Shown: piece after piece, positions 1,973 through 45,651 of the stretch
Numbering within the stretch: the stretch's first letter is position 1
Layout: each line of letters begins with the position of its first letter
NCBI GenBank assembly: GCA_902529885.1
Contig: CABZYC010000001.1
Coordinates: 156,177-220,176 of the forward strand
Direction of reading: 5' to 3'
Origin: an uncultured Candidatus Woesearchaeota archaeon
GTDB lineage: Archaea > Nanobdellota > Nanobdellia > Woesearchaeales > GW2011-AR9
Length of the DNA: 64,000 bases
The notes under the pieces: generated by a model
Database searches by the model: none
What the model saw: only the letters and a program-made list of their open reading frames with translations
What the model was told of the DNA's origin: nothing
Program-made: the position numbers and the translations under genes

Positions 1973-2086
1973 TGGGGACGCTGGGATTCGAACCCAGATC
2001 TGCTGGTTACACCACAGCTAATCATCGTTGCCTCATCGCTCCACATTCTGGAGCCAGCTATTCTAACCAGGTTATACTACGCCCCC
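1973..2086 (-). tRNA. tRNA-Trp(CCA) with an intron of about 40 nt between positions 37 and 38
   Basis: Reverse complement reads GGGGGCG ... GCUGG CUCCAGA [intron AAUGUGGAGCGAUGAGGCAACGAUGAUUAGCUGUGGUGUA] ACCAGC AGAU CUGGG UUCGAAU CCCAG CGUCCCC A. Acceptor stem is 7 bp with one G-U. Anticodon stem is 5 bp (GCUGG/CCAGC) with loop CU-CCA-GA. T-arm is CUGGG-UUCGAAU-CCCAG. D-stem pairing is weak. No CCA is encoded. Confidence 0.65.
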
Positions 2087-14133: not shown

Positions 14134-14887
14134 CTTTGTAATACCTCATAAACATATAACATGATACAACAACCATAAAAACACACATCCATTGTCCTTT
14201 ACTCAACCCATAATACATTATATCCTCTCGAAATACGTCTAGTATTAAACGAGTTATACCATCCCAAAATACAAAATTCCAAAATATGAAGCCAGCAGTC
14301 CATTGATGCACAATGGCCCTAACATTTAACCAAAATAACCAGCCAGTAATAAGAAACCGTTTCCCTGCCGCGTACAGAGTGGACGGGTGCCGGCACCCTT
14401 CAACACCATCGTATACAACGCACCAAGGCGCATCTGTTACACGGCCCAACAGTTCCCCATTAATAAAATTGGCAATACGGCCCAGAGCTAAGGATGCCAT
14501 CACTGGGGCAGCCCCATAATCTGCCATACGCCAAAAGTCCCACTTATACTTTCTGCACCAGAAGTAGTTTGCAACAACTATACCCACTAACCCACCATGA
14601 AAACTCATGCCACCCTTCCATATCTTGAAAATTTCTAAAGGGTTAGAAAAATAGTATGCTGGCTCCCATACATACATGAACAATCGTGCACCAATCACAA
14701 CGCCCATTATTAAAAAAAATGCATAATCTTCAATCTGCTTTTTTGTATAATCTACAAGTTCTCTTCTAGATAAATAACGAAGCCAATATATCACAAAAAA
14801 TACGCCGGCAATGTATGCTAAAGAGTACCAATAAATGTCTAAAGGGCCAATACTTAGGACGATTGGATCAAAATTATGAGTTATCAT
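14105..14887 (-). CDS. lgt: Prolipoprotein diacylglyceryl transferase Lgt
   Basis: N-terminal FDPIVLSIGPLDIYWYSL; Lgt signature GRIANFINGELLGR (compare E. coli GRIGNFINGELWGR); RHPSTLY (compare RHPSQLYE). 260 aa polytopic. Confidence 0.8.
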   Translation of the reverse strand: MITHNFDPIVLSIGPLDIYWYSLAYIAGVFFVIYWLRYLSRRELVDYTKKQIEDYAFFLIMGVVIGARLFMYVWEPAYYFSNPLEIFKIWKGGMSFHGGLVGIVVANYFWCRKYKWDFWRMADYGAAPVMASLALGRIANFINGELLGRVTDAPWCVVYDGVEGCRHPSTLYAAGKRFLITGWLFWLNVRAIVHQWTAGFIFWNFVFWDGITRLILDVFREDIMYYGLSKGQWMCVFMVVVSCYMFMRYYKDDWKRFLTR

Positions 14888-19892: not shown

Positions 19893-20231
19893 TCACTTTT
19901 TAAACCTTTGGAGTAGACCACGATAACCAAAATAATACCCTATGGTGTATAATGCAACATAAAAAATATATGCTTGGATGTTAAAATAAAGTAAAGGGAT
20001 ACCTAATAAGATAACAATTATACTAATAAAACTGTAAGGTGCACCGTACCATGCAGCCTCGGTACCGAGAATAAACCCTAATACCGCCATCAAAAATGCA
20101 CCTTTTGGAAAAATGTTTGAAACCATAAGTGCTAAACAAACAAGAGATAAAGTTAAACCTAAAAAGTATTCTAGCCAATGCTCTTCAAAGTTTAATGCCA
20201 TAATAATGCTACCACTGCAGTAAATGTACAA
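19893..20231 (-). CDS. Membrane protein (hypothetical)
   Basis: Three hydrophobic helices. Confidence 0.35.
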   Translation of the reverse strand: MYIYCSGSIIMALNFEEHWLEYFLGLTLSLVCLALMVSNIFPKGAFLMAVLGFILGTEAAWYGAPYSFISIIVILLGIPLLYFNIQAYIFYVALYTIGYYFGYRGLLQRFKK

Positions 20232-20902
20232 ATGACTACTGCCAAAATAGTTGTTAAAGTTGTAGGAATCAATATAGAAATAGATAAAATTGCCACAAAA
20301 AATAGTAAGAATGTGTACAGTGTCCTGCTACCAAAAAAAACTTGTAAACCTTCTAGCCAAGGCATTGGTAAAACTTGCATTATGCTTAACACTACTAAAA
20401 AAAATACTGCTTTCTCTAAAATGAACCAGTCAACATAAAGTGTGAAAACACGAAGTAATGTCGCAATTGATAATGTTAAAAGAGTAGTAAAACATACTAC
20501 TAAGGCATGCTCATAATAGTCGTGCCCATAAAAAAATTTGCCTAACCTTTGACGTTTTAAGAATGTTGTTTGGAAAGACCCAACCAAAGGCAAAAAAACG
20601 TAGCCAAACGTTAAAACACTCATAAAAGTCGTGAAGATTATTCCTTCCCAAAATGGTTTATAATGTAATGTGTAACCTTGCATCAAAGAAAAAATCTTTT
20701 GTGCACATAACCTGCCAACCAATAGTAATAACAAAAGGACGTATAAACCAATAAACGAAAACAGCCAAATAACAATACCTGTCCCTTCAGGAATATGAAA
20801 TAAGGATATAAATGTAAATATGAAAGTGAACACCGCTAAGCTCTGTATTTCATATAAGTCTATTTTAAAATAAGTCTTATATAATGTTCGCCAATCATCC
20901 AT
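20192..20902 (-). CDS. Polytopic membrane protein (hypothetical)
   Basis: Six or more predicted TM helices. Confidence 0.35.
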   Translation of the reverse strand: MDDWRTLYKTYFKIDLYEIQSLAVFTFIFTFISLFHIPEGTGIVIWLFSFIGLYVLLLLLLVGRLCAQKIFSLMQGYTLHYKPFWEGIIFTTFMSVLTFGYVFLPLVGSFQTTFLKRQRLGKFFYGHDYYEHALVVCFTTLLTLSIATLLRVFTLYVDWFILEKAVFFLVVLSIMQVLPMPWLEGLQVFFGSRTLYTFLLFFVAILSISILIPTTLTTILAVVICTFTAVVALLWH

Positions 20903-20934
20903 AGTTTTAAAAGGGCGTTTAAAGTATAAAAAAC

Positions 20935-21825
20935 CTACGACTTTACAAATGTGTAAAAATTATAAGCATGTTGACCACGTAAAAGTTGCTCGTTGTTCGT
21001 TACTTTAAACAAAGGGTGAGGATGCAAATAACATTGTGAACGGCAAAATATATTTATTATTGAACCCTTCTTAGCCAAAGAGAAATAATTGAAAATAGTG
21101 TCTAAACTTTTTTCATCGTTACGAGTCAAAAAAACAAGGTTACGTTGAGCAGGTTGTAATTTTTCTATCAAGTTTTTCCAATCGCCACCATGCACAATTA
21201 TTTTATCACGAATGTTAGCTAACCGAAGATGACGGTCCAAACTCCGGATAGTATTCAATTCTGGTTCATAAACGTGCTGTGTGCCATAATCCTCCTTATA
21301 ACGGTGCACTTGTTCAAATAATAACGCACCATCTTTTACACCATAAATCTGTAATCCTTCTAAACAAGGATCACTTTTTTGCACAATCATGAAAGCGAAG
21401 TCGCCCCGTAAACCTTGTTTATGCGCAAAAATTCGATAATCACGTTTTGACAAGTCTTTATCATGTAATTGTAAACAGAGGTAATCTTTTTCAGCACGAA
21501 CAACACGCAAAACAAAATCAGGTGTTTTATAATTAATCTTACGTTTTGCAAGGCCTGCAAGGTAAGGGTGAATCTCAGAACGTACTTCTTTTGGCACACC
21601 ACTAAATTCTATAGTTATACTACCTTCTTCCAAATGAGGAAATTTTTCTAAAGTTAAAAGGTTACCTTCTTGTAATACTTCACACATGAACCTGATACTT
21701 TGTAATGAAGGTAACAAACTTCTCACTGAATCATCACAAACAAACACTGTATCGTGTTGCTCATAGTTATATCCTTCCAGCTCCACTTTGGTTGCTTCTG
21801 GAACATCAGAAATGATAGTTATCAT
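20935..21825 (-). CDS. Hypothetical protein (possible THUMP-like RNA-binding N-terminal region)
   Basis: 296 aa, 4-nt overlap with gyrA. No confident motif. Confidence 0.3.
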
Positions 21826-28970: not shown

Positions 28971-31900
28971 ATGGGTGCAGAAAGGCCAAACCTAGAAAAA
29001 ATATTAGCAAATATTCCAGAATTATTTGTTAAACCAATAGCACCAATTGTAGAATATAATCCTCAAGATACCGTGGAAAAAGCATTAACAGAAGTAAAAC
29101 GGTTAGAAGCATTAGGTAAAGAATATCAAGAGTCGTATTATAATCATAAAAACGAAATCCAAAATCTATCAGTTAACAATATTGAACAAGTATTGCAGCA
29201 CATCCAACAATTACACACGGCAACCGCAAACATCGACATATTACGTGATCTAATCATGCATGCTAATGATAATGTGATTAATCTTACAAAAGAAGAGTAT
29301 GATGTTGACGGTTTTGAAGAAATAAGTGACATTCAAGATAAAATTTTCAAAGAACAAAACGCGTTAAGAAAACAATGGTTCGGCACATGGCGGTTCGCAA
29401 AACAAATCAAAGTATTATCTAAAAAAATGGAAAAAAGTTGGGAAGCCTGGAGCAATTTACAACGTTACCCTAAAGTACCGTCTACAACTACCCCTGTAAA
29501 CAGTATTGTCTCTGACTATATTAGCAACCATATTGTTGATATTATGCGGCACAGATGGGAATACATTATCAATGATATACCAGATTACCAAACAAATGCT
29601 GATTTGTCAAAAAAGCAGAACGAAGTTCTTGAAGATGCACACAAAATCTTTTGGAGAAATAAACAAATAGAACACATACATTCTGCTGCCGAAAATTTCA
29701 AACATGTCTCACAACTTGACCCAGACCTAAAATATGTAGAAGAAATAGGAAAATTCACACCAAGCATACGACAAGTCGATATGACTCAGTTCAGTTTTGA
29801 AGTATTTAAAAACTTACCAACCGAGATTAAAGCACCAATTCAAGACCTGGTACACAATGAGTTCACGTCACAGTTTTTGCTTACCCCAGAGCATACTAAC
29901 TCATCACAAATCTTGGGTGAAAAGATGATGGAATTTACAGATGAAAAATCTATATTGTATAACGCTGTGAATTTCTGGAGAGAAAGCGGCATGTCTGGCC
30001 AAAAACCATATATTAGACGAAATTACCATAGTGAAAAAACAGATGCACAAAATTATTTTGATAAACTCGAAACGCTAACGCACCCAGCGTTACAAACCCT
30101 TAAGAAAAATCTTTCTAACAATGATCACGATAGCGAAAATACACACGAAGCCGTAGCTCAATTAATCACTGAATTATTAGATGGTACGTCTGAAGAAACA
30201 TATTTCGCGCTTAATAGTATTGATGGTATTACCGTGCCTGACCACCTAGTTGAAAAGATTACTACAAAACTCGACCTATCTCCAGTACATAACAAAGAAC
30301 TTTTTCAAAAAACACTCGATAAAATTACTCGGAGAAACACAGATATCTCTACCTACAAGGAAGTTATAGATAACGTCATGGAATATGATCGTTCAGTTAC
30401 TAAGATCAAACAAAGTATGGATGACCCATCCAAGATTGATCGATTAATACATTCCGTATGTAGTGCCCAATATACTATTACTAATAAAGATAAACAATCA
30501 CAAAGCCTTGCAATCATGAACGTTGTTAAAGATACACCGTACGAATTATCCAGCAACGTTATATCAAAGATTCGCAACATCTTTTTTGCTGACCTCGCTA
30601 ATGTATCAGGGCATACTAGAAAAGCCTTAGACAATTTTTATGCTATAACTAAACTATCAAGCTTGTACAACCATCCTGAGTTACAAAGTATAATTGAAAA
30701 TAGTTCCTACACACACTTAATCGACGACCCAGACCAAATAGAATCATACATGAAAGTGATTACAAAACCAAAAATTGGAACTAAATTTGACCAATTATCT
30801 TCATCTCGGAGAGACATAATACGTCGAACAGCAGAGACTGCGTATAAAATAAATAAGGATTTCAGCGACCATTTCATTGAAAACATGGTGATGAAAGAGC
30901 GGTCAATGGCAAAAATGTGGTTATTAAACAGGTCATTAACATCAATTAGTAACCATAGTGGGTTAGAAAAACACATACTCAGTATAACACCTAATGAAGC
31001 GTATAAAACAGTAACACTTTTTGGACTTGTTCGACCCATCGTTGACAATAAATGTACGCAAGATTTACAGCAAATATTTGAGTCGAGTGACAACGTTGTA
31101 GACGAATACCACAGGTTGCGAGACATACAAAGTTCAGCGGTACGCAAAAAGACGTTACAAAAGCTTCAAAAGCATGTTGGACAAGCAGCAGTTTTCAAAA
31201 ATCAAAAAGGAGAAATCGCGAAAAAACGGTATGAACAACGTATATCATCAATTAATGCCACTTTAAACAGAGAACGTACTAATGCTGTCGAAACCGTGTT
31301 ACGTGACACCGTTAAACGGAACGTAGAAAAGATTGTGGGAAAACCGATTAACATTGATGTTAATGAAGATATCATCAACGCAACATTACTGTATAACGAT
31401 ATTACTAAAAATAAAACATTGTTAAGAGATATTATTGTATCATGCACAGACGGCACATATAAAGCATACTCTGATGATAAGAACATTGAATATCTTACAG
31501 ACCTTCGAAATACATCCATCAATGTTGATGCATGGATTGAAGGGGTCACACAAACGTATAAACCGCAGTTGGTACAAAACATCAAAGAAAAAATTCAGTC
31601 AGAAATACAACACCATAAAACTGAAGCTAAAAAAATATTGTGCAAGAATGGGATTGAATACAAAACCTTTGAAGAAGCATATAAAATGTTACAAAATATC
31701 AATCAAGACGATGCCCTTGACCTCAAGACACAAATTCAAGCAATCAAAGGGTTACAGACACGAGACGAATGCAACAGTTTTAGTGATGTTACCATCTACC
31801 TAGAACATGACCCACTCAAGATATTACAAATGGGTAATTATTCTACGAACAGTTGTCTTGGACTCGGAAAAGGTAACGCATGGTCAACCGTGGCAAACGC

Positions 31901-32156
31901 TTTGGACAGTAATAAACAAGTCTTATACGCAGTGATGAACGGAGAAATCATTGGTCGTAAACTGATCGCGATTAATAATAACAAGAAGATGGTACAATAC
32001 AGAACGTACAGTGACTATGTAGATTTAGATCTTGACAGTATGTTTAACACATACCTTGACACTTTTGCGGACATAACCAATATTGAACGGGATACGAAAG
32101 GTACAGTGAGCACCATACTTGCGCAACATTGGTATAACGACGGCATCTTAAGCTAA
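28971..32156 (+). CDS. Large hypothetical protein (1061 aa ORFan, predicted cytoplasmic, helical)
   Basis: Long uninterrupted ORF with its own TATA-like box upstream. No TM helix, signal peptide, P-loop or other recognisable motif. Confidence 0.5.
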   Translation: MGAERPNLEKILANIPELFVKPIAPIVEYNPQDTVEKALTEVKRLEALGKEYQESYYNHKNEIQNLSVNNIEQVLQHIQQLHTATANIDILRDLIMHANDNVINLTKEEYDVDGFEEISDIQDKIFKEQNALRKQWFGTWRFAKQIKVLSKKMEKSWEAWSNLQRYPKVPSTTTPVNSIVSDYISNHIVDIMRHRWEYIINDIPDYQTNADLSKKQNEVLEDAHKIFWRNKQIEHIHSAAENFKHVSQLDPDLKYVEEIGKFTPSIRQVDMTQFSFEVFKNLPTEIKAPIQDLVHNEFTSQFLLTPEHTNSSQILGEKMMEFTDEKSILYNAVNFWRESGMSGQKPYIRRNYHSEKTDAQNYFDKLETLTHPALQTLKKNLSNNDHDSENTHEAVAQLITELLDGTSEETYFALNSIDGITVPDHLVEKITTKLDLSPVHNKELFQKTLDKITRRNTDISTYKEVIDNVMEYDRSVTKIKQSMDDPSKIDRLIHSVCSAQYTITNKDKQSQSLAIMNVVKDTPYELSSNVISKIRNIFFADLANVSGHTRKALDNFYAITKLSSLYNHPELQSIIENSSYTHLIDDPDQIESYMKVITKPKIGTKFDQLSSSRRDIIRRTAETAYKINKDFSDHFIENMVMKERSMAKMWLLNRSLTSISNHSGLEKHILSITPNEAYKTVTLFGLVRPIVDNKCTQDLQQIFESSDNVVDEYHRLRDIQSSAVRKKTLQKLQKHVGQAAVFKNQKGEIAKKRYEQRISSINATLNRERTNAVETVLRDTVKRNVEKIVGKPINIDVNEDIINATLLYNDITKNKTLLRDIIVSCTDGTYKAYSDDKNIEYLTDLRNTSINVDAWIEGVTQTYKPQLVQNIKEKIQSEIQHHKTEAKKILCKNGIEYKTFEEAYKMLQNINQDDALDLKTQIQAIKGLQTRDECNSFSDVTIYLEHDPLKILQMGNYSTNSCLGLGKGNAWSTVANALDSNKQVLYAVMNGEIIGRKLIAINNNKKMVQYRTYSDYVDLDLDSMFNTYLDTFADITNIERDTKGTVSTILAQHWYNDGILS

Positions 32157-32435: not shown

Positions 32436-33803
32436 ATGGGAGCACAACTTACTGGAATTGCACAGACCTTAAGACAATGCCAAGATATGCACAAAGTTTA
32501 CATTTCAAAATATGAAGATTATATTCATAATCAACTTTCTAAAATTAAAATGTCACCTGAACCTTCTGGGCAAACATTTGGATTAGAAATAGAGCTGGTA
32601 GGTGTAAACAAAGATTACACGTTCAGAACATTCTCAGATAGACAATTTAGTAAGGAGTATGCACCAGAAATTATGACCACAAATGTCGAACTTGTAACTG
32701 AACCATTAAAGCACTCTTCTTTACAATGCATGATTGAACATATTGATACAATGAAAAAGGGAGTTAAAGGTCCGGCATTACAAATTGGGGGGCACCCTTA
32801 CTTTAATTTAGGATATGCCAAACAATTTCTAAATCCAAGACAACGATATCAACAATTGATAAATGTGTTAAAAGAATATAACACACAATTTTGTGTGCCA
32901 CAATATAACGGAACAGAATATTGTAGTAGCGGTGCTGAATGGGAAGGTATTGGGACTTCTTTCCAGTTTACAGTAAATACCCCCATCGAAGAGGTACCTT
33001 TCTTTTATAATGCTGCAAAAAAAATGGCACCAATAGCAATGTACGCAAGTGCAAGTTCACCATTCATTGATGGTGTTTTATCGAACGCCCTTAGTACAAG
33101 ATCTATTGTTATACCATCAGTTACATCTGGTGGACGGTCAAGATGGAGAGCACTTGAACCACTCACAGATGAATTTCGACCAGTAAACAATCAAGAAAAA
33201 AATATGTATGAAAGATTGTCTCAGTTTAATCCAAACGTTGCAAAATATTTTACAGAAAGTACAAGAGAAGGATGGCTTCTTCGAACAGTAGGAGACGAGC
33301 ACCAAGATATACAGCCCCCACCAACTTTTTGGCCAAGTGTTAAGTTGCAAGCACATATTATTAATCAAAAAGGAATCCCAGTAGAGGTCCGTACTGCTGA
33401 ACAATTAGCTAATACATATGATACTGCCCATTATATGTTAGGAATGTTATCTATGATCCAACAGGAATCGCTTAACTTGAAAAATAATGAATCTTATACA
33501 ACCACTGGACAGTTAGACGATAATAATGTTAAGCTAATTAATTTTTCACAGAACATTATTTGGAATAATAAAAGTGTCCACCCATTAGAAATTATTAGAA
33601 AATTTGTTCCAGGTATGACCAACCTTGAGAGATATGGTTATTCAATGTCAGATATTAAATCTGTCCAAGAATGGTGGAAAAATCGTGTGAACGATGCACA
33701 ACATATGAAACAAACAGCGTTACAAAACCAACCCGGACTTGTTAACGGCGACCAAGTTAAACCAGAAACATTAGAAAAAATGTTGTCAAAGCACTTGATT
33801 TAA
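32436..33803 (+). CDS. Carboxylate-amine ligase, glutamate-cysteine ligase family 2 (YbdK/GCS2-like)
   Basis: TFGLEIELVGV (compare YbdK TLGIELEMQVV), VELVTEP, QIGGHPYF (compare GGTHPF), PIAMYASASSPF (compare FIALSAASPY). TATA-like box about 22 nt upstream. Confidence 0.65.
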   Translation: MGAQLTGIAQTLRQCQDMHKVYISKYEDYIHNQLSKIKMSPEPSGQTFGLEIELVGVNKDYTFRTFSDRQFSKEYAPEIMTTNVELVTEPLKHSSLQCMIEHIDTMKKGVKGPALQIGGHPYFNLGYAKQFLNPRQRYQQLINVLKEYNTQFCVPQYNGTEYCSSGAEWEGIGTSFQFTVNTPIEEVPFFYNAAKKMAPIAMYASASSPFIDGVLSNALSTRSIVIPSVTSGGRSRWRALEPLTDEFRPVNNQEKNMYERLSQFNPNVAKYFTESTREGWLLRTVGDEHQDIQPPPTFWPSVKLQAHIINQKGIPVEVRTAEQLANTYDTAHYMLGMLSMIQQESLNLKNNESYTTTGQLDDNNVKLINFSQNIIWNNKSVHPLEIIRKFVPGMTNLERYGYSMSDIKSVQEWWKNRVNDAQHMKQTALQNQPGLVNGDQVKPETLEKMLSKHLI

Positions 33804-33828: not shown

Positions 33829-34572
33829 TTGCAAAATATGAAAGAGGGAAACATTCTGAAATATTCTTTTAAAGAAATGTTTAAACATCCTGTTGTTTTT
33901 ACTCCTAACATCTTACTTTTTGTTTGGAATATAATAGCATTATTGTTCTATGGACAGATCACCGATTGGAATTTTTTGAATGGGACCTATTGGTGGCAAA
34001 CCCTTATTTATTTGGCAATTGTCTTATTAGTAGACAATTATATTGTATCTTGTAAATATGCCATCTTAAGAAAGTTGGTACAACGTAAAAAAATAACATT
34101 AAAAAATGTAATGGCATTTGCAGACAAACATTTTTTAGACATTTTAAAAGTTCACGCTTTAACATTTGCAATTATTACATTACCTTTCATTTTGTTAGTT
34201 AAACTTTCAGCGTTATCAAATACCCTTGCATTCATACTAAGTGTTTGTATTGTCACATACCTTGTTTTAATGAGTATAAGATTACTATTTATTTATCCAG
34301 AATTAGTATTCCATGAAAAAGGCGTTATGAAATCTATTACAAAAGAAATGCATTTTACTAAAACACACTCATTCCATACACACGTAGTCTGGATTACAAC
34401 ATTAAGTATTTTATTTCTTGTTGACATTGTACAATCTGTAATTAATAGTTTAGGTATGCTCATACTGTTTGGAACAATTATGATTATTGGGCTCGAAATA
34501 TTTGTTAGTGTCTGGGAACACATGTACATTTTTGCTGCATACTCTAAAACAAAATTAAATAAGCAAAAATAA
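33829..34572 (+). CDS. Polytopic membrane protein (hypothetical)
   Basis: Five or six hydrophobic helices. Confidence 0.4.
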   Translation: MQNMKEGNILKYSFKEMFKHPVVFTPNILLFVWNIIALLFYGQITDWNFLNGTYWWQTLIYLAIVLLVDNYIVSCKYAILRKLVQRKKITLKNVMAFADKHFLDILKVHALTFAIITLPFILLVKLSALSNTLAFILSVCIVTYLVLMSIRLLFIYPELVFHEKGVMKSITKEMHFTKTHSFHTHVVWITTLSILFLVDIVQSVINSLGMLILFGTIMIIGLEIFVSVWEHMYIFAAYSKTKLNKQK

Positions 34573-34640: not shown

Positions 34641-35252
34641 TTACCCTCTAATTTTTTCTTTAACAAATTTGGTACGTGTAAACGCTTCACGTTCTTGCTC
34701 CGCTAATACTTGTTTTATTTGATTAAATTCATCTTGCATGGCAGGTATTTTAATATGCTCTAAACTATTAACACGCCTTCGGGTTCGTATTATTTCTTCA
34801 CTTAACCTGCTCAAGATTAATTCTAACTCAGAAAGACGTAATAATTCAGGTAACAACTCAGAAAACTTTTGCATACTATCACGAACATAGTAAGCAGTAC
34901 CAATTAAACTTGTGTTTACTGAACTTTTAATGGGTTTAACTGTTAACCTTGGAACTTGGACACCCATTATGCTTGCTTGCTCATTAACAATCTCCATTGT
35001 AGGTTGTGTTGCTAAGGCAATACCCATTACTCGCCCTGCACCACTCACTGCTGCTGCACGGGTTAAAACTTTGAAAGCTAACTCTTTACTATGTTTAACG
35101 TTGTTCTCACGTTTAACATATTCAAGCACATTCTCCATATATTTTTGCACCATACCGTCCAATTTACGTTTAAGTAAACTGTGTCCTTTTTCAGCTAGTT
35201 TTATACGGTTTTTGAGTTCTAATAACTCCATCCGTGTTGCTGGTCCACTCAT
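34641..35252 (-). CDS. atpD: A-type ATP synthase subunit D
   Basis: Last gene of the ahaHIKECFABD operon, 203 aa, coiled-coil central stalk. Confidence 0.8.
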
Positions 35253-36610
35253 TTTTGGTACACATCAATATGTTTCTGTTTCACTTTTTTAAGTTCTGAA
35301 CGTGGCAACTCTTTCAGGATGTTCCAACCTAAATCAAGTGTTTCTTCAATACTACGATTACTATCAAAACCTTGGTTAATAAACTCTTTCTCAAACCGTT
35401 CTGCAAATTTCAAGTATTGGCGGTCAACCTCGCTTAATGAAGATTCACCTATTACTGCCACTAATTGACGGAGTTCTAATGCATAAGCATATGAAGCATA
35501 CAATTGATCTGATACGCCACTATGGTCTTCACGAGTTTTATTCTCACCAATCCCAGATTTCATTAGCCGGCTTAACGAAGGTAAAGGGTTTAATGGGGGG
35601 TTGAACCCCCTTTTCTGTAATTTTGGATCAAGAACAATTTGACCTTCAGTAATGTACCCTGTTAGATCAGGAATTGGGTGTGTCTTGTCTCCAGCAGGCA
35701 TGGTTAAAATTGGTATCTGAGTGATTGTACCTTTACTCCCCATTATTGCTCCTGCACGCTCATAATTGTTTGCAAGATCAGTGTACAAATAGCCCGGGTA
35801 ACCACGACGGCCAGGGACCTCACTTCTTGCAGAAGATAATTCTCGTAAAGCATCACAATAGTTTGTGAAATCTGTTAACACTACTAATACATGCTTATCA
35901 TGCTCATAAGCAAAATATTCTGCAGTAGTCAAAGCTACACGGGGCGTCAAAATCCGTTCAATACTACTATCGTCTGCCAAATTCATGAAAACAATAGTGT
36001 TGTCTAAACTGCCACTCTTTTCAAATTCTGTACGGAAAAAACGTGCTTCTTCGTTAGTGATACCCATCGCTGCAAAAATAACTAAAAAATCTTCGCCTTC
36101 AATGTGTGCTTGCCGAACAATTTGTGCAGCTAATTCATTGTGTGGTTGCCCCGCACTACTGAAAATTGGTAACTTCTGACCACGTACCAAAGTAGTCATA
36201 CAATCTACTACAGAAACACCTGTCTGGATAAAATCGTGTGGGCTTTTACGCGAAGCAGGATTTATTGCTGAACCGTTCACATCGAGATATTTGTCAATCT
36301 TTAATTCAGAACCATCAAGAGGTTTACCAAGACCATTAAACATTTTACCAACCATCTCTGTGCTTACACCTATCCTAGCTGGTTCACCTTTAAAACGAAC
36401 TTGCGCTTTTTTGGTTAAGCCCATACTACTTTCAAAAAGTTGCACAACTACATGTTCATGACTTGTTTCTAAAACTTGTCCCAATAATTCGTCACCATCA
36501 TGACGAATTTCACAAATTTCACCATAACTTATCCCTGGCACATTTTCTACAATTAATAGTGGGCCTCGGACTGATTTAACTGTTTTAAACCATTTTTTTG
36601 CATTTGCCAT
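35249..36610 (-). CDS. atpB: A-type ATP synthase subunit B (regulatory)
   Basis: 453 aa with typical B-subunit sequence. No intact P-loop, as expected for subunit B. Confidence 0.9.
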
Positions 36611-38355
36611 TATTCTTTCCTCCGTACAGAATCTATGCTTTTCTGAAATAATTTTGTAAATGTGTCAACATGTTTGTCAACATTGTCACTAGCATAACCC
36701 TCGTTCGATTCATATTTTAATTGAGCAAAAGTAGTACACGCTTCCGATTGACGAAGTGCAGCCCAATCAATTTGGTCACAACTTTTGTATAGTAAGTCCC
36801 CAACTTGTTTTAAGGATCTCATCATTACCCTCATTTTAGAGTTTGGACAAAAAGTATCATTTTCATGAAATGCATTTTGTTGTAAAAAATCTTCTCGGAT
36901 CATACGTGCAATAAACAAAGTGGCACGGTCCTTAGCAGGTAATGTATCACTCCCCACTATTTGTACAATCTCCATTAATTCTGATTCTTCCTGTAACAAT
37001 TTTGTCATCCAAGACCGTACCGAACTCCAGTCTGGGTCACAATTAGAATCAAACCATGCATCAGTGGTAGGTGTATACAAACTATAACTTTTCAACCAAT
37101 TAATACTAGGAAAATGACGTTTATCGGCTAGACTACTGTCTAACGCCCAAAAACATTTTGCCATACGTAATGTCGCTTGAGTCACAGGCTCAGAAAAATC
37201 TCCCCCTGCAGGACTTACAGCGCCAACAACAGTTATGCTTGCATCTTCATTATTTAACGTTTTCACACTCCCAGCACGTTCATAAAACTCTGCTAACCTT
37301 TTACTTAAGTACGCAGGATACCCTTCTTCACCAGGCATCTCTTCTAATCGCCCAGATATCTCACGCATTGCTTCAGCCCACCGGCTTGTACTGTCAGCCA
37401 TCAAAGCTACATTGTACCCTTGGTCACGATAATATTCTGCAATAGTGATCCCAGTATAAACTGAAGCTTCACGAGCAGCAACAGGCATGTTTGAAGTGTT
37501 AGCAATTAAAATTGTTCTGTCCATTAAAGGATTACCAGTTTTTGGGTCTTTTAGTCCAGGGAATTCTTCTAATACTTCAGTCATTTCATTACCGCGTTCC
37601 CCACAGCCAATGTAAACAATAACTTCTGCGTCACACCACCTAGCTAATTGTTGTTGGGTTACAGTTTTACCTGCACCAAAAGGGCCAGGGATCGCTGCAA
37701 CACCACCTTTTGTTACAGGGTACATAAAATCTAGTACTCTTTGGCCACTTAACAAAGGTTCACTTAGACCAGATCGTTCACTGTATGGTCTAGCTCTACG
37801 TACCGGCCAATACTGTAACATTGAAACTTCTGTTCCTCCAATCTTTGCAATTGGGTCAGATATCTTGAATGAGCCAGTTTCAATTGATTCTATCTTACCT
37901 TCAACACCTGGCGGACATAATATCTTATGAGTTATTAGAGATGTTTCAGGTACCTCACCTATAACCATCCCAGGTGAAACACTATCTCCTTTTTTAACAT
38001 TAGGTTTGAATGCCCAGGTCTTTTTTATGTCTAATGGAGGCACTTCTACACCTTTAGGTAAATATGCACCATGGGCATCACGGATTATGTCTAATGGGCG
38101 TTGTGTTCCATCAAACACTTGACCCAATAAGCCAGGTGCTAACGCAACCGATAATGGCCGACCTGTATTTTTAACTGTGTCACCAGGACCAACCCCGGTT
38201 GTATCTTCGTACACCTGTACAACTGTACTCTCTTTACGAAGTTCAATTATTTCACCTAATAATTTATGTTCTCCAACGTGCACTAAATCGTTTACTGCAC
38301 CGTCAACGTCCGTGAAAACCACTGGACCACTTACTTTCAATACTTGACCTTTCAT
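36610..38355 (-). CDS. atpA: A-type ATP synthase subunit A (catalytic)
   Basis: P-loop GPFGAGKT, 581 aa, no intein. Confidence 0.9.
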
Positions 38356-38642
38356 TGTAATCGTTCTCTTAATTCTGATAATGTTAATCCCAAAATCTCT
38401 TTTGTCATTTTATCCAAATGTTCATTCTCGTTTGCACCAGGAATCCGAACACATAATGCAGTAGTTTTAACGTGCATTCGATAAATATTTTCTGATACTA
38501 GTACTATATCGGATTTAGAGTATTTTGAGATTAGTTCGGTTACTTCCTCCTTGGAAACATCATGTGGCACAATATGTGCATCATTTATGCCCCCAAGCCC
38601 AAACCCCATCACTTCATCTTCATTACCTATTATGACTATCAT
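38352..38642 (-). CDS. atpF: A-type ATP synthase subunit F
   Basis: 96 aa, canonical position between C and A. Confidence 0.7.
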   Translation of the reverse strand: MIVIIGNEDEVMGFGLGGINDAHIVPHDVSKEEVTELISKYSKSDIVLVSENIYRMHVKTTALCVRIPGANENEHLDKMTKEILGLTLSELRERLQ

Positions 38643-39646
38643 AATACTAACACCTCTCGTATAGACTCCTTGTCAATATTTTGACTTTTTAATTTTAACA
38701 AAATGTTCGCGTTCCTTGCACTAGTACGACTTTGGATTATGTAACCAACTAATGGTGCATCACTCAAAGGATCTTTACTAAAACATGCAATCCCAAAATC
38801 GTATAACAATTTCTCTGCGCTACGCTCAATCTCAGCAGGGGTAACACCTTCGAGATGATAACCATGATCTCTCCCAATTTTAATTACATCTTTATTAAAC
38901 GCATTTAATGGGATAACTCCCCCTGGGATTTTAGGATCTTCGTCTTTTAATACTAATGAAATATTTTGAATGTCAATCATTTTTTTTACATACGAACGAG
39001 TTAACTTTGTTGTTGCACTACCCAATAACTTCTGGAAATAATAAAGGTCTAATTCTTCTTCTAATTCCCTATATTGTTTCTTTTTGATTGAATCTGAATG
39101 TTTCTCAAGAATAGAATAATATCTTGTTCGTTTTAATTCAGTTATCAGTGATTCAAAACTAAAATCGTTCCGGCCAATATAATCTTCACTAAAAACTTCC
39201 GTTATGCTCATGATATCTCGTTTAGATGCATCATGGAATGACGATGACCTAATTATACTTTCAATCATTAAAATGTCATATTTTCTTAATAATGCAGAAA
39301 CAAATGGTTTTACTTCAGGTGGACTAAAACGTTGTAGACGTAATAGATCCTGTACTACTTTAGTTCGTAATGCACTGTCCACTGCAGCATAACTTGTATC
39401 AGGACCAAAAAGAGCCCTTAATCCAGGAAACACTTTCTTATCTAGTCTATATACTATATCATTATAATCTGCATCTAATAATCGTTCAAAATCTTCTGCA
39501 CGTAACAATTTTTTACGCATAACACGTAATCTTGCTTGCACACTTGCATAGGGGTATTTTTGTGAAACTACTTTAAACACAGGTATCATCACAACAATAC
39601 TTAACACTAATAATGAAGCTAACAAAATTAATATTTGTTCAATCAT
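38639..39646 (-). CDS. atpC: A-type ATP synthase subunit C
   Basis: 335 aa, operon position. Confidence 0.7.
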   Translation of the reverse strand: MIEQILILLASLLVLSIVVMIPVFKVVSQKYPYASVQARLRVMRKKLLRAEDFERLLDADYNDIVYRLDKKVFPGLRALFGPDTSYAAVDSALRTKVVQDLLRLQRFSPPEVKPFVSALLRKYDILMIESIIRSSSFHDASKRDIMSITEVFSEDYIGRNDFSFESLITELKRTRYYSILEKHSDSIKKKQYRELEEELDLYYFQKLLGSATTKLTRSYVKKMIDIQNISLVLKDEDPKIPGGVIPLNAFNKDVIKIGRDHGYHLEGVTPAEIERSAEKLLYDFGIACFSKDPLSDAPLVGYIIQSRTSARNANILLKLKSQNIDKESIREVLVL

Positions 39647-40173
39647 TGTCGGACCTCTTTAATAAATTCAGTATTAAACCAATCAACAAGACTGTATTCA
39701 TAAACGGTCGTTTTGGTTTCTGCTTGAACTAATGGGTTGGTTAAGGTACAATCAACTGTTTTCAAATTAACTTTGTTCCATGCACTAATTGTGCAATCTT
39801 TTAACAAAACACCATCTTTCTTTACTTGAACTTTTAGCTTTTCTACAAATGATTCAAACAAGGAATCTAATCTGCTAGAAGATTCAAGATGGCTTAAAAA
39901 AACTTGATACGTCTCTTTTTGTAATGCACTTATTGCTTGAGCATAAATTGTATCTGCATGCAATTTAGCTTGTGCTATTTTTTCTGCACGCTCATTCATC
40001 AATCTTGATTCAACATTACGTGTAAAAAGTTCTGCCTCAGACTTGACTTGGTCCAAAATAAGCTTGCGGGCACCATCGCATGCACTCTTAATGTCGGAGT
40101 CCAATTTAGCTAAACGTTCGTCGTACACATGGTGTACATACTGTTCAAACTCTTTACACGTTAAATCACTCAT
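39643..40173 (-). CDS. atpE: A-type ATP synthase subunit E
   Basis: 176 aa, peripheral-stalk coiled-coil. Confidence 0.7.
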   Translation of the reverse strand: MSDLTCKEFEQYVHHVYDERLAKLDSDIKSACDGARKLILDQVKSEAELFTRNVESRLMNERAEKIAQAKLHADTIYAQAISALQKETYQVFLSHLESSSRLDSLFESFVEKLKVQVKKDGVLLKDCTISAWNKVNLKTVDCTLTNPLVQAETKTTVYEYSLVDWFNTEFIKEVRQ

Positions 40174-40397
40174 TGCCCAAACACAAAGAGTAATAATATT
40201 GAGATTACGAAACCATAAATTGCTTGTGTCTCAGGTAACACTGCGAAAACAAGCATTTTTGCTAGTAAACTTTCATTCTCTGCGGTTGCACCTGCTGCAG
40301 CACTCGCAGCAATACCTTGTCCAATACCACTCCCTAATGCAGCAAATCCAATTGCGATCCCTGCACCTATTCCAATTAATCCTGTTGCTAATTCCAT
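40170..40397 (-). CDS. atpK: A-type ATP synthase proteolipid subunit K (c), single hairpin
   Basis: 75 aa with two TM helices and the ion-binding motif PETQAIYG. Confidence 0.85.
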   Translation of the reverse strand: MELATGLIGIGAGIAIGFAALGSGIGQGIAASAAAGATAENESLLAKMLVFAVLPETQAIYGFVISILLLFVFGQ

Positions 40398-40399
40398 TT

Positions 40400-42154
40400 T
40401 TATTCCTTTATTTTTGTTTTAATCTTAAAGGGCGTAAACGCAGTCCCACCTTCCTTGAAAAAAAGACCGAATTGTTCCACATAATGAAGCCGCGCACTGT
40501 GTATTACACAAGCAATCATATTCAATATAAAATTGAAAGTGTGCCCTAGCACCAATATTGTCACCCATAAAATTGGTCCAATCAATGTGAACCCTGCCGC
40601 TTTATCAGCAATAATGTTTATTGCTAAAGCGACACCCGCCGTTGCCAGACTCAGTGCCAGCAGGCGAGCGTAACTAAACCATATCCCAAAGAAACCAGTG
40701 ATATGGGTTAACCCTAATATACCCCTACGTAATAATAAAATAATAGTAGCAATAATCAGGCTACTATAAATCATCCAAGGTTGATTGAACAATAAACCCA
40801 TAATTATTGCCTGTAAAAAATATAAATGACTCACATCGAATAAGGCTGGGAGAAACTCTTTACGTAAATGACCTTGGTATAAAGCCAATAATACCCCTAT
40901 ATTAATGTGAATAAGCCCGATTATCAAAGCCAATTGTAAAATCTCAAAACTAGCTGTGAATGAGTCTTTATACAAAGGAGTAACATGAACTAAATTTCCA
41001 AAAAAGCCACCAAATATTAATCCGAAAATTATACTACTCACTGCACTCAGCCCAAAAATCCACAATAGTGGTTTGACCTCAGGACCAAAATGCCATCTTA
41101 AAAATGCAAGTACTACCATCATCATTAACCCGTAACCAATGTCGCTTAACATAAAACCGAAAAAGAAAGGATAAAATATCGCCATGATTAAAGAAGGGTC
41201 TACACTATTATATTGTGGGACCCCATACATATTAATTAAATGTTCAAAATGTTTTACTATCCCTTTATTTTCTAATAAAGTTGGGGCTTCTTCAACTTGG
41301 CCAAATGTCATTGACAAGTTTTCTACTGATTTAATTTTTTCAATAGACTCAACATCACCATACCCTTGAACTACAAAAAAAAGTTCTGTCCGTCCAAAAC
41401 GTTGGCTTATCGCACCTTGTTCATAATAATTTTCAAGTGTGCTTATCAACCATTTCAATGTACTTTGTTTCCCATTAATCTTTTTGAAGAGTTTACTGTC
41501 AATCTGACTTGTTTTTTCAATACTGCTTTCTAATAATTTTGTTGATTCTTTTAACGTAAGATCACTATCTTTTTTTACAAATGATAAATCAATCTGTTTC
41601 AATGAATTGTTTTTTACAAAAGTTATAATCTCGTCTTCTTTTTGATAGGGGCCACTTGCATAATAATATACTCCATTCTTCCCTTGCACTACTTCTACTG
41701 ACCCAGGAGATTTTAACAGCTTTCTTGAAAAGTATACTTGATTATATCCCGTCTTCACAACATAAATTTTAGGTAATTGAGATAATATCCTAATATGACT
41801 TTCATACTTCTTTTGTAATCTTAATTGTTCTTTTTTTTGTACATCTAAAGCTTTAACACCTTCAAGTACACTATTAAGAAATTCAGTTGAACGTTTTAAT
41901 ACCTTTTCATAATTAGGTAGTCCGTCTAATACAAAATTGATTTTCACCCCAGTCTTCTCAGCAATATACCTTAATTTTAATATTTGGTCACTGATTAAGT
42001 TCGTATTTTGCCCTGGTACATCACGATCTAAAAAATCACTTTTATCTATCTCAGAAATATGCATTACACCTAAATGATGAAGTTTGTTAATGATAGTCTC
42101 TTTCTCATCTTGTTTCCCCATTAAAGTTATTTTTACAAGAGGTTTTGTTTTCAT
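40400..42154 (-). CDS. atpI: A-type ATP synthase subunit I (a)
   Basis: 584 aa: soluble N-terminal half plus a C-terminal polytopic membrane domain. Confidence 0.8.
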   Translation of the reverse strand: MKTKPLVKITLMGKQDEKETIINKLHHLGVMHISEIDKSDFLDRDVPGQNTNLISDQILKLRYIAEKTGVKINFVLDGLPNYEKVLKRSTEFLNSVLEGVKALDVQKKEQLRLQKKYESHIRILSQLPKIYVVKTGYNQVYFSRKLLKSPGSVEVVQGKNGVYYYASGPYQKEDEIITFVKNNSLKQIDLSFVKKDSDLTLKESTKLLESSIEKTSQIDSKLFKKINGKQSTLKWLISTLENYYEQGAISQRFGRTELFFVVQGYGDVESIEKIKSVENLSMTFGQVEEAPTLLENKGIVKHFEHLINMYGVPQYNSVDPSLIMAIFYPFFFGFMLSDIGYGLMMMVVLAFLRWHFGPEVKPLLWIFGLSAVSSIIFGLIFGGFFGNLVHVTPLYKDSFTASFEILQLALIIGLIHINIGVLLALYQGHLRKEFLPALFDVSHLYFLQAIIMGLLFNQPWMIYSSLIIATIILLLRRGILGLTHITGFFGIWFSYARLLALSLATAGVALAINIIADKAAGFTLIGPILWVTILVLGHTFNFILNMIACVIHSARLHYVEQFGLFFKEGGTAFTPFKIKTKIKE

Positions 42155-42450
42155 TTCATCACCTTCTTCATTATTTTTAATGCTACTTTACTTACATCTA
42201 ATGCATCTAATGTCTCAATATTATTTTGTAATTTTGAATCTATTTGTTTTAATTCAGACTCAATCTGTGTTCGAACTTCTTCTGCTCGACCATCCATTTT
42301 TTTCTGGGCTTCTTTAAACAAAGATAACGATTCATCGTGCGCAGATTCCTGAGAAATACGAATTCGCTCAATACGAGACAATTCTAGTTCAGCAAACTTC
42401 TCACTAAACGTCTTTTCTGTGCGAAGAACCGTCATAAAATGGTCGTCCAT
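42151..42450 (-). CDS. atpH: A-type ATP synthase subunit H
   Basis: 99 aa, charged coiled-coil, first gene of the operon. Confidence 0.6.
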   Translation of the reverse strand: MDDHFMTVLRTEKTFSEKFAELELSRIERIRISQESAHDESLSLFKEAQKKMDGRAEEVRTQIESELKQIDSKLQNNIETLDALDVSKVALKIMKKVMK

Positions 42451-42475: not shown

Positions 42476-44524
42476 TTAAGTCTTGTCATTCAAATCAGCG
42501 TCCAGTATCTCTAAATAATGTGTATGTTTGTCAATTGAATGTATCTTTGAATTAGTTAAACTAATTTTTTTATTGAATAAAGGGCAATCTAATACTAATG
42601 TTTCAAATTCTCCACCTTCACCTGCAACATGTAAACCATTAACCTTTTCTAACTTGCTTAGTTCCCTATAATCTTTATTAGTTATTATCCTTGCGAGCCA
42701 AGAGCTGTCAAGACCGTCTGCTGCAACCAAGGTCATAATGAACTTGAAATCTGCACGAAACAGTTCGTTCATTTGGTCATGCTGCCCTTTGTTCCAACAA
42801 GGTGCAAATACTTTTAAGCCAACTTGATCACATAACATTTCTACACGGTCGCGCTGATATGTGCTTGAAAGTGCACCTACTATAACACCTTCAGCACCCA
42901 TTAGTTGTACCTTTAACAGCCCTTCTTTCAAGTCCTTAAGCTCAACTTCTTTCTCGCCCATGGTGTTCACCTTAACGTGTGGTATGCCCATTGACTCACA
43001 TTGTAAGGAAGTTAGTTCAATGCCATGATGTTGAAACATGTACGAAAATTGGTTTTCAGTCATTATTGTTAAAGCTGAATGTATAAGGTATTTCTGTTGT
43101 GACATAATGTATGCAGAATATAAACTATCTTTGCCACCACTTAATAGAATAGATAAGCGAGGCATTCGACCATTAAAATGTTTGAACAACCATTCACTTT
43201 TTTTGTAACCTTTTGTAACGCGCCTTAATGCATCAGACACCCTGCTACCGTATTGAGCAGCTTTTTTTGGTCTGAAAGCGACTAATTTAATTAAACCATT
43301 GTCATACATTGATTCACGAAAAATATCTTTCCCTAGCGTGTGCATCTTATATTTTACAGGAATCCGTAATGCATAAGATACTAATTCATGATCTAAAAAA
43401 GGTAACCGTACTTCTACACCGGCTTGCATTGAAACAATATCGTCCCTAACAAGATCTCGTTCATACATCTTACGTAAACCTGATAAACACTCCCTTGAAA
43501 TATCTGCACTTTTTTTATGGCGATCATATCCCGCAAAAATTTCTTCGCTACCAAGCCCAGAAAAAACAACTTTTGCACCTAACTTTCTTGCTTGTAAACA
43601 AGCAGCGTAAAGTGTTACTCCTACTTCTGTTTTAACAACATTACAATCATTTATCATGTTAGAAACAGTCACCGCATACTCTTTTACAGTATCATCATCT
43701 AATTCTACTACTTCTAAATCCCACCCATAATGGCCACACACATTGATGCTTGCTTCAAGATCAGAACTATTTGAACCATTTGTGCAAGCAACTGTTACAC
43801 AAGTAAATGGGACATTCAATTTATCTAATAATAATGCAATTGCTGTGCTGTCAACACCGCCACTAAAAAGGACGGCTATCTTTTTGGTCGGGATACGTTT
43901 TTTTACTGCAGACAAAAATAAGTTGTACACATTACTTTTTATAAGTTGAATATTATCCTCTAATACAGGAGATGTATCAAAAAAAGATCTTTCCTTCTTC
44001 AACATAACTTGGTCATACACATATATTAATCTTGGATGAACTTCAATGGGGTTTTTTAACACATTAGGTTCTGATGCAAAAAAAAAACCATCTGTCAAAT
44101 CATAATATAACGGTTTTACCCCTAAAACATCTCTAAACAAGGTGTACACACCATCTTTCAAGTATACACCGGCATAAACACCATCTAATTCATCTATCCC
44201 TTCAATCCCTTTAAGATCCAATAAAGCACAAACTAATTCTGCATCATTAGAAACTTTTAAAGAATATTTTTGTGCTAATACTTCCCAATTATAAATCTCA
44301 CAATTGATAACAAGTGCGCCATCTCGTTTTATAGGTTGTTTCACATTGCCAACTACACTGTGCAAAAAATGTAATAAGTATTCGTTACCATCTTTAACAT
44401 TAGAACAAAGCTTATTATCAATTAATAAAGTGCTACCATCTCTTCCTCTGTGGCTTAATCCATTAAAAGAGCGAGCAGCATACTCACTTAGAAAATTGCC
44501 TTTCCCTCCTGATATCCCACACAT
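42476..44524 (-). CDS. Fusion protein: asparagine-synthetase-like glutamine amidotransferase plus C-terminal Dph6-type (diphthine-ammonia ligase/MJ0570 family) ATP pyrophosphatase
   Basis: N-terminal MCGI (Ntn nucleophile Cys2) and HRGRDG. AsnB PP-loop LFSGGVDST. The C-terminal roughly 220 aa carries a second PP-loop LLSGGKDSLY and GEGGEFETLVLDCPLF, diagnostic of the Dph6/PF01902 family. Confidence 0.65.
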   Translation of the reverse strand: MCGISGGKGNFLSEYAARSFNGLSHRGRDGSTLLIDNKLCSNVKDGNEYLLHFLHSVVGNVKQPIKRDGALVINCEIYNWEVLAQKYSLKVSNDAELVCALLDLKGIEGIDELDGVYAGVYLKDGVYTLFRDVLGVKPLYYDLTDGFFFASEPNVLKNPIEVHPRLIYVYDQVMLKKERSFFDTSPVLEDNIQLIKSNVYNLFLSAVKKRIPTKKIAVLFSGGVDSTAIALLLDKLNVPFTCVTVACTNGSNSSDLEASINVCGHYGWDLEVVELDDDTVKEYAVTVSNMINDCNVVKTEVGVTLYAACLQARKLGAKVVFSGLGSEEIFAGYDRHKKSADISRECLSGLRKMYERDLVRDDIVSMQAGVEVRLPFLDHELVSYALRIPVKYKMHTLGKDIFRESMYDNGLIKLVAFRPKKAAQYGSRVSDALRRVTKGYKKSEWLFKHFNGRMPRLSILLSGGKDSLYSAYIMSQQKYLIHSALTIMTENQFSYMFQHHGIELTSLQCESMGIPHVKVNTMGEKEVELKDLKEGLLKVQLMGAEGVIVGALSSTYQRDRVEMLCDQVGLKVFAPCWNKGQHDQMNELFRADFKFIMTLVAADGLDSSWLARIITNKDYRELSKLEKVNGLHVAGEGGEFETLVLDCPLFNKKISLTNSKIHSIDKHTHYLEILDADLNDKT

Positions 44525-44556: not shown

Positions 44557-45651
44557 TTAGCGTATATGAATCTCTAAAATGTCGCCGTCCATCAATTGAT
44601 GGTGTAACATTAAACGTTGCCCTGGAAACTTTGCTGATTTCCCCCACACTCTTGCAAAACGGAACTTTTTAACAAAGTCTTTATGCAACTTGTTACAAAC
44701 ATCTCCAATAGTACTACCCACTTGAATAATGAATGGTTCGTCCATGTCAGCAGGTTTTCGTGGTTCTTTCATATACAATCTCATAAATTCAAGTTTATCA
44801 AAAATTGATTCTCTTAAAGAGTCAATGTTAAGGCCAGTATGTGCACTTATCCCTAAATCAAAAGGAATTTGATCTTTTACTTTTTGAAGTTGTTCACTTG
44901 TAACTAAATCACATTTTGTTACAACTGTTAATGCCGGGACATACTTCTTATTGTTTTCAATACAATCAATCATCTGATCTGCATTTATTGGTGAACGTAT
45001 AAGTACGTCTGCATTCATTAATTTAAACTCTTGAAGAATGCGTGCATACACTTTTTTAGGTAAAGGTAAAGGGACAGTCGTATGAACATCTATTCCCCCA
45101 AAACCTTTTTTTGTAATATAAACATCAGGTTTACGTTCATTAATTCGGATATTAGCGTCTCTTACTTCTTTTAAAATTGAATTATATTGTTGTGGTTGTA
45201 ATGCGTCAACCACAATTAAAACTAAATCTGCATTGTGTACTACACTCAATATTTCTCGACCACGGCCTTTTCCTCGAGCAGCACCTTCTATAATACCTGG
45301 TACATCCAATATCTGTATTTTTGCTTGACGATGATAAAGCATCCCTGGTACAACAGATAAAGTAGTGAATGCGTAAGCCCCAACTTCACTATCAGCGCCA
45401 GTCAATGTGTTTAATAATGTACTTTTCCCGGTACTTGGAAACCCCAACAATAATACAGTCCCATCACCACTCTTACGTACACTAAACCCTTCTTTAGCCC
45501 CACCTTTACTGGATTGACGCTGTTGTTCTTTATCTTTTAATAAAGCAATTTTAGCTTTAAGTATTCCAATATGGCCTTGCGTAGCTTTATTATACTTAGT
45601 TTTCCTAATTTCATCTTCAAGATCTTTAATACGCTGTTTATTATCGGCCAC
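44557..45651 (-). CDS. DRG-family GTPase (Obg-like), with TGS domain
   Basis: N-terminal KNKATQGHIGILKAKIALL (DRG signature), G1 GFPSTGKST, C-terminal TGS domain. Confidence 0.8.
   Translation of the reverse strand: MADNKQRIKDLEDEIRKTKYNKATQGHIGILKAKIALLKDKEQQRQSSKGGAKEGFSVRKSGDGTVLLLGFPSTGKSTLLNTLTGADSEVGAYAFTTLSVVPGMLYHRQAKIQILDVPGIIEGAARGKGRGREILSVVHNADLVLIVVDALQPQQYNSILKEVRDANIRINERKPDVYITKKGFGGIDVHTTVPLPLPKKVYARILQEFKLMNADVLIRSPINADQMIDCIENNKKYVPALTVVTKCDLVTSEQLQKVKDQIPFDLGISAHTGLNIDSLRESIFDKLEFMRLYMKEPRKPADMDEPFIIQVGSTIGDVCNKLHKDFVKKFRFARVWGKSAKFPGQRLMLHHQLMDGDILEIHIR

Follow-up and report, generated by a model that had tools for sequence, protein, structure and literature searches.

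A modular archaeal family linking a glutamine amidotransferase and an AsnB-like PP-loop domain to the diphthine-ammonia ligase Dph6

In the 64,000-nucleotide stretch of DNA analysed here (hereafter the window; contig CABZYC010000001.1, positions 156,177 to 220,176, of the uncultured Candidatus Woesearchaeota assembly GCA_902529885.1), a single gene encodes a 682-amino-acid (aa) protein composed of a class-II glutamine amidotransferase (GAT) domain (G), an AsnB-type PP-loop domain (M) and a Dph6, or diphthine-ammonia ligase, domain (D). The protein adds a divergent representative to a family that is known but biochemically uncharacterised. Its architecture and the idea of glutamine-derived ammonia are already known, and the modularity of the family is the main new result. 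Dph6 has M, rather than the glutaminase, as its evolutionary partner: M occurs fused to Dph6 or beside it even where the glutaminase is lacking. We propose that the chain holds a coupled pair of amidoligases in which G feeds M and M acts as the partner of Dph6, a reading to which we give a probability of about 0.5.

The same fusion of GAT-II, AsnB-type PP-loop and DUF71 domains was reported in Methanohalophilus mahii, Methanosalsum zhilinae and Ca. Nanosalinarum (de Crécy-Lagard et al., 2012, Biol Direct 7:32; PMC3541065), and its authors proposed glutamine hydrolysis as the ammonia supply (PMC3541065). In the published review of that paper, L. Aravind asked which PP-loop domain uses the ammonia and what reaction the AsnB-like domain carries out (PMC3541065). 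An initial annotation of the window had not recognised the architecture as characterised; this is correct for the biochemistry of the family, but the fusion itself was published in 2012 and NCBI names these homologues diphthine--ammonia ligase.

The fused gene and its three domains

The protein is encoded by one uninterrupted open reading frame (ORF) with an ATG start and zero internal stops. Its features, in window coordinates, are as follows.

42476..44524 (-): whole ORF, G + M + D; Pfam, NCBIfam, homologues, AlphaFold2 model
43970..44524 (-): G domain, residues 1-185, class-II (N-terminal nucleophile, Ntn) glutamine amidotransferase; Pfam GATase_7/GATase_6, conservation
44519-44521 (-): Cys2 nucleophile of G; conservation in 121 and 77 proteins
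44297-44305 (-): N74-C75-E76 of G; conservation in 121 and 77 proteins
44114..44116 (-): Lys137, equivalent of the tunnel-gate residue Arg-142 of human ASNS; alignment
43163..43969 (-): M domain, residues 186-454, AsnB-type PP-loop adenylating domain; Pfam Asn_synthase, ASNS/AsnB alignments, Foldseek
43847-43864 (-): PP-loop SGGVDS of M, residues 221-226; motif
43553-43555 (-): Leu324 of M, at the position of catalytic Glu348; alignment to AsnB/ASNS
42476..43162 (-): D domain, residues 455-682, Dph6 / diphthine-ammonia ligase; PF01902, TIGR03679, fold, invariant residues
43124-43141 (-): PP-loop SGGKDS of D, residues 462-467; motif
42821..42862 (-): helix of D, residues 555-568, candidate interdomain contact by inference from class-specific conservation
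42602-42619 (-): EGGEFE of D; motif

Other motifs are MCGI (residues 1-4), HRGRDG (25-30) and GEGGEFETLVLDCP (635-648). Pfam matches were obtained for GATase_7 at 62-157 (E 1e-13), Asn_synthase from 200 (E 8e-40) and Diphthami_syn_2 at 458-669 (E 4e-54). The initial annotation had read a single 682-aa frame in three parts from its motifs; all of these are present, and the Pfam search agrees with its Asn_synthase and Diphthami_syn_2 calls and boundaries. An AlphaFold2 model built with 120 homologues is confident and compact, with a predicted local distance difference test (pLDDT) value of 93.3 and a predicted TM-score (pTM) of 0.90.

The 682-aa three-domain gene is real and single. An exact-sequence look-up of the window protein returned no identical record; a 99%-identical protein of the same length is on record (P0001), in a cluster with four further 682-aa members from other contigs. 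Apart from this cluster the protein stands at about 45% identity to its nearest relatives: the 120 best database matches are three-domain proteins of 670-716 aa from Woesearchaeota or Nanoarchaeota, and as a lower bound there are at least 120 full-length homologues. In all 80 of the best genomic loci, which include DPANN metagenome-assembled genomes (MAGs) and complete Methanolobus genomes, one unbroken ORF, 656-751 aa from stop to stop, matches residues 1 to ~681. A further search located the fused gene in Methanomethylovorans and in numerous Methanolobus species that are in culture. The hosts of the fusion are Woesearchaeota/Nanoarchaeota and Methanosarcinaceae. A survey of archaeal genomes for the fusion, suggested in the initial annotation, was made with one genome per GTDB species and the family-specific peptides NCEIYNW and GSEEIFAG, and relatives were present in at least 514 species genomes. 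No second Dph6 or AsnB-like copy was found in the window or within 10 kb of the 80 homologous loci.

These data bear on the concern, raised at the outset, that adjacent genes had been merged by a frameshift or a chimeric contig. Split forms are real in certain lineages (loci L089 and L174, described below), but the same unbroken architecture recurs in at least 120 protein clusters and in 80/80 independent loci, including complete Methanolobus genomes, and the 99%-identical protein is carried on five other contigs. An artefact of assembly or annotation is hardly credible and was rejected.

At the C terminus lies a true Dph6 domain, as first annotated. It scores 183.8 bits against PF01902 (cutoff 23.2; E 4e-54) and 229.9 against TIGR03679, Dph6_archaeal (cutoff 197.3), and can be aligned over its full length with PH1257 and PF0828. 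In Foldseek comparisons its fold matches 3rk1_A (PF0828) with a target-normalised TM-score of 0.95 and a root-mean-square deviation (rmsd) of 1.4 Å, and 2d13 with a target-normalised TM-score of 0.94-0.96. The E-GGE-[FY]-E-[ST] motif occupies residues 636-642. At least 90% conservation in fused, MD (M and D without G) and stand-alone forms was found for G464, K465, D466, S467, E636, G637, G638, E639 and E641. Residues S494, E528, Y556, Q557, E636, E639 and E641, which correspond to PF0828 S44, E78, Y103, Q104, E183, E186 and E188, are invariant in the same three forms; Y495 (the equivalent of PF0828 Y45) is the family consensus residue, yet falls below the 90% list. The EF-2 (elongation factor 2)-facing role of those PF0828 residues comes from a published docking model (de Crécy-Lagard et al., 2012, PMC3541065).

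The C-terminal 228 aa thus resemble Dph6 (yeast YLR143W; archaeal PF0828, PH1257 and MJ0570) in sequence, motifs and fold. On its own, archaeal Dph6 is a protein of about 225 aa, and forms of about 228 aa are common in the same phyla as the fusion. Yeast Dph6 has C-terminal RidA-like domains (PMC3541065), whereas the additional domains of the window protein are N-terminal. According to a 2021 review, archaeal dph6 has been assigned by bioinformatics only (PMC8305020). One DUF71 homologue each is listed for M. mahii and M. zhilinae (Table S1, PMC3541065), under accessions unconfirmed as the fused proteins; if they are the fused ones, the fused protein is the sole Dph6 of these two species. DPANN archaea in general encode Dph1/2, Dph5 and Dph6 (PMC6143161), and a scan of the window's 30 largest ORFs turned up no dph2, dph5 or EF-2 gene.

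An AsnB-like domain as the proposed partner of Dph6

The G-M portion of the model superposes on E. coli AsnB (1ct9_A) over 481 columns with an rmsd of 3.0 Å and a target-normalised TM-score of 0.78 (Foldseek). Two sets of family members, of 121 and 77 proteins, retain the PP-loop, Y357, D384, R387, K429 and K449 (AsnB numbering). The Lys449 loop is represented by K420 and the AAQYGS loop, and both K399 and K420 are conserved in all architecture classes.

The middle domain had been labelled an AsnB-type synthetase domain. A function as asparagine synthetase is unsupported because Glu348 is replaced and the curated equivalog cutoffs are missed (TIGR01536, 198.0 against 267.1; NF006949, 149.8 against 499). 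At the Glu348 position (human Glu364, in the SGEGSDE motif), 72 of the 77 proteins have Leu, four Ser and one Ile, and Glu or Asp never occurs. The equivalent residue sits at the tunnel exit in human ASNS (PMC10245805), where the E364A and E364Q variants are inactive (PMC6748925). In addition, AsnB T321/T322/R324 become V/K/G(E), altering the TTxR motif, K376 becomes Gly, and about 90 C-terminal residues of E. coli AsnB past the K449 loop are without counterpart. Judged by these residues, M is not a canonical asparagine synthetase. A distant group of AsnB-like proteins of ~455-513 aa (P0214, P0215, P0219, P0237, P0239, P0253, P0254, P0260, P0263, P0265 and P0269) carries Gln (SGQGADE) at the Glu348 position and mostly NGEIYN-type motifs.

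An exhaustive HMMER search of 1.84 billion representatives with G+M as query gave 275 matches at E <= 1e-30. By architecture, the best 150 of these 275 comprise 52 GMD, 74 GM, 22 M-only and 2 MD proteins, the GM and GMD counts including fragments. Complete GM proteins are numerous; they start with MCG and end just past the helix that leads into D in the fused proteins. The M-only proteins (260-307 aa) are named asparagine synthase and come from Woesearchaeota and Diapherotrites. Mis-calling of larger genes as M-only fragments was considered and rejected, since gaps of 43-219 bp lie upstream and no GAT match was found within 4 kb. Residues conserved at 90% or more in GMD, GM and M-only proteins alike are S221, G222, G223, D225, S226, D255, G323, G325, Y333, R335, K399, R403, Q424, Y425 and S427, all of them ATP/adenylation residues. 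M is predicted to be an autonomous, ATP-using enzyme in its own right because these residues are kept in every class. That M might be a degenerate pseudo-enzyme was rejected for the same conservation of the ATP site.

Within G, the residues C2, N74 and D94 (AsnB Asp98) are invariant in 121/121 proteins, and R30 and E76 are also invariant in both sets. Alignment to human ASNS shows K137, in G, and D362 and E371, in M, as the retained equivalents of Arg-142, Asp-405 and Glu-414, which form the tunnel gate network of that enzyme (PMC10245805). Seven residues, I291, K298, Y359, D362, M366, E371 and R373, all in M, are conserved solely where G is present, and they fall in the region lining or gating the tunnel in human ASNS. 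The glutaminase is probably wired to M, because the tunnel and gate residues in M are conserved only together with G.

Linkage of M to Dph6 was found with or without G, as a fusion or as adjacent genes, across DPANN and Methanosarcinaceae, in the following six arrangements.

GMD fusion: as in the window
GM then D: genes overlapping by 14 nt in a Methanohalobium MAG (L174 8001-10179), with a 496-aa GM protein and a 233-aa Dph6
MD fusion without G: P0225 and seven metagenome loci (L095, L105, L130, L135, L137, L146, L159)
M then D: 4-bp ATGA overlap (L089/L090), 6 bp gap (L115) or ~1 kb downstream (L099)
D then M: L134
Divergent M/D pairs: L140, L147

The split form of Methanohalobium contrasts with the fused gene of the sister genera Methanolobus and Methanomethylovorans. 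In four DPANN loci (L089 6001-7532; L134 1-1588; L140 1083-2700; L147 3238-4792) a G-less M gene lies directly beside a stand-alone Dph6 gene, the pairs showing three different orders or orientations, and no GAT domain match was present within 4 kb of the G-less M/Dph6 loci. The frequency of linkage was estimated from 80 metagenome loci that an M-only profile picked out; they contain 35 M-only genes. A dph6 gene lies within ~1 kb of five of these (~14%), against a chance expectation of ~0.3% that is our own rough estimate for a single-copy gene in a 1-Mb genome, the lineages not being independent. The M domains give a star-like neighbour-joining tree, from which the number of fusion origins cannot be read. 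At L089, a 366-aa ORF (7495-8595, minus strand) with a PP-loop-like SCGKDS motif is convergent with the Dph6 gene and overlaps its 3' end.

A proposed pair of coupled amidoligases and the alternatives

In the mechanism that we favour, the chain would contain two complete PP-loop amidoligase modules. Glutamine would be hydrolysed at Cys2, and the ammonia would pass to the adenylation site of M through a conserved, gated AsnB-type tunnel. M, predicted to be catalytically competent with a remodelled acceptor pocket (Glu348 to Leu; TTxR changed), would adenylate and amidate a carboxylate that is not handled as aspartate is in AsnB. D would serve as the cell's diphthine-ammonia ligase, adenylating the diphthine carboxylate on EF-2 and then amidating it. 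Most probably M and D would act next to each other on EF-2 or as one complex; the glutaminase may be an optional accessory that renders the M step, and possibly also the Dph6 step, glutamine-dependent. Ammonia might also be channelled on to the D site: the conservation, specific to fused proteins, of the R558/E562/D566 face and of E355 speaks for this, and the weak interdomain covariation speaks against it.

A different account, put forward both in the initial annotation and in the 2012 model, makes the protein a glutamine-dependent diphthamide synthetase in which ammonia is channelled to the Dph6 site and M is a mere scaffold or conduit. The fusion is indeed very widespread, with relatives in hundreds of species genomes and every examined locus fused; the model is compact (pTM 0.90); the tunnel-exit Glu348 is replaced by the hydrophobic Leu; and R558, E562 and D566, which form one face of a helix beside the active-site residues Y556/Q557, are conserved in fused proteins and not in stand-alone DPANN Dph6. 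The hypothesis, moreover, is a published one (PMC3541065). However, M-only proteins without glutaminase keep the full ATP-binding and catalytic set, which would be superfluous for a passive conduit, and M is fused or adjacent to Dph6 where a GAT domain is absent. A search for a G-dependent conserved set in D returned nothing beyond five positions. The fusion fits a glutaminase that feeds Dph6, as first annotated, but this account is insufficient, with M linked to Dph6 where the glutaminase is missing and the tunnel residues tracking G within M and not within D. We regard it as unlikely.

It could also be argued that Dph6 and a true, if divergent, asparagine synthetase have unrelated functions and were brought into one polypeptide or operon only for co-expression in small genomes. 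In keeping with this, equivalents of the aspartate ligands are kept (D351 as E/D, E352, D384 and R387), numerous GM and M genes lie apart from dph6, and an expressed 'asnB' has been annotated in Woesearchaeota (PMC11606122), although its membership in this family was not checked. The essential Glu348, however, is never present, and its loss inactivates the human enzyme (PMC6748925); the TTxR motif and K376 are changed and the equivalog cutoffs are missed. The linkage to Dph6, furthermore, recurs in six arrangements in both DPANN and Methanosarcinaceae, and at unfused M loci it far exceeds our rough chance estimate. A union of unrelated enzymes appears quite improbable.

The coupled-amidoligase reading has a more specific form, in which M is an unrecognised Dph6-associated amidoligase with its own substrate and the glutaminase serves M rather than Dph6. 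We offer this form tentatively, as somewhat unlikely. If true, in DPANN archaea and some Methanosarcinaceae there would be a second ATP-dependent amidation of EF-2 or of another translation component, or diphthine amidation would need two cooperating PP-loop enzymes; M would then be a fourth archaeal 'Dph' protein.

Several points weigh against two coupled amidoligases. One amidation step is known in the diphthamide pathway, and a second EF-2-directed amidoligase is without a known substrate. Dph6 is not beside 30 of the 35 M-only genes, most unfused M or GM genes are likewise unlinked, and neither of two stand-alone DPANN dph6 genes that were checked had an adjacent M or GM gene. Only two M positions, P212 and E355 (the latter adjoining M residues D357/R360), are specifically conserved when D is fused, and mutual-information coupling (effective number of sequences, Neff, 136) gave weak interdomain pairs only (z ~5), which we do not trust. 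A tight union of the M and D active sites is, on this conservation, not demonstrated. In class-II amidotransferases Arg49 binds the alpha-carboxylate of glutamine. Its position is Leu54 here, and is Leu in 120/121 and 76/77 proteins, followed in the sequence by His; residues 52-58 (nt 44351-44371), where the class-II motif is H-x-R-L-S-I, read H-F-L-H-S-V-V, with HxLHAVV as family consensus. Glutaminase specificity appears uncertain because this arginine is replaced. In the later literature, no paper was found that tested the fusion biochemically.

Related systems and the surrounding window

The closest known systems are the Methanosarcinaceae AsnB-DUF71 fusions, which have the same domain order; the Methanolobus orthologue (L079) is 40% identical over residues 1-681. 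They differ in having Ser at the Glu348 position, against Leu in the window protein, which comes from a DPANN-type genome. For Methanosarcina, the 2012 survey noted no fusion. With AsnB (E. coli 1CT9; human ASNS 6GQ3) the family shares the two-domain fold, the Cys nucleophile, the oxyanion Asn, the PP-loop, the Lys449 loop and the tunnel and gate residues, but it is without Glu348, R49, T321/T322/R324, K376 and the last ~90 residues. The AsnB fold is reused, with altered acceptor pockets, by beta-lactam synthetase (1JGT/1M1Z), carbapenam synthetase (1Q15) and TsnB9 (7YLZ), which match the model with target-normalised TM-scores of ~0.7 at 15-18% identity (Foldseek). Beta-lactam and carbapenam synthetases have lost the glutaminase nucleophile, whereas the window family has kept it. 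NAD synthetase is a PP-loop amidoligase family that occurs with and without a fused, nitrilase-like glutaminase and has a single PP-loop domain; it parallels the M/GM and MD/GMD forms by analogy and not by homology.

What supplies the nitrogen in vivo when diphthamide synthesis is completed is unsettled, as is the role of the domains appended to Dph6 (RidA-like in eukaryotes, AsnB-like here). The family is present, fused and split, in cultured methanogens (Methanolobus, Methanohalophilus and Methanohalobium), which makes its glutamine dependence and the role of the second PP-loop domain testable. For metabolic reconstructions of DPANN archaea, the missing catalytic Glu argues against counting an 'asnB' of this kind as asparagine biosynthesis.

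The contig is DPANN-like archaeal, with ~35% G+C, and the window encodes aIF5B, PolD, Cdc6, MCM, PCNA, ABCE1, a Hef-like helicase-nuclease and an A-type ATPase operon. The fused gene is flanked on its own strand as follows.

44557-45651 (-): DRG/TGS-type GTPase, upstream of the ORF with a 32-nt gap
34641-42450 (-): complete A-type ATPase operon, downstream of the ORF with a 25-nt gap

The ATPase operon did not recur near homologues at the loci compared. The DRG gene recurs near homologues in L002 and L084/L085, and genes for prefoldin, UPF0147 and L37ae are found in L002 and/or L083. Large ORFs of 1061, 455, 247, 354, 236 and 296 aa in the window are without a Pfam match at E <= 1e-5, the regions concerned being the following.

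28971-32156 (+)
32436-33803 (+)
33829-34572 (+)
10276-11340 (+)
20192-21825 (-)

A 114-nt Rfam tRNA match (1973-2086, minus strand; 46 bits), not reported by ARAGORN, is probably an intron-containing archaeal tRNA. At 14105-14887 (minus strand) the window also carries a clear homologue of Lgt, prolipoprotein diacylglyceryl transferase (Pfam E 2e-59), a bacterial-type lipoprotein enzyme on a DPANN-like contig.

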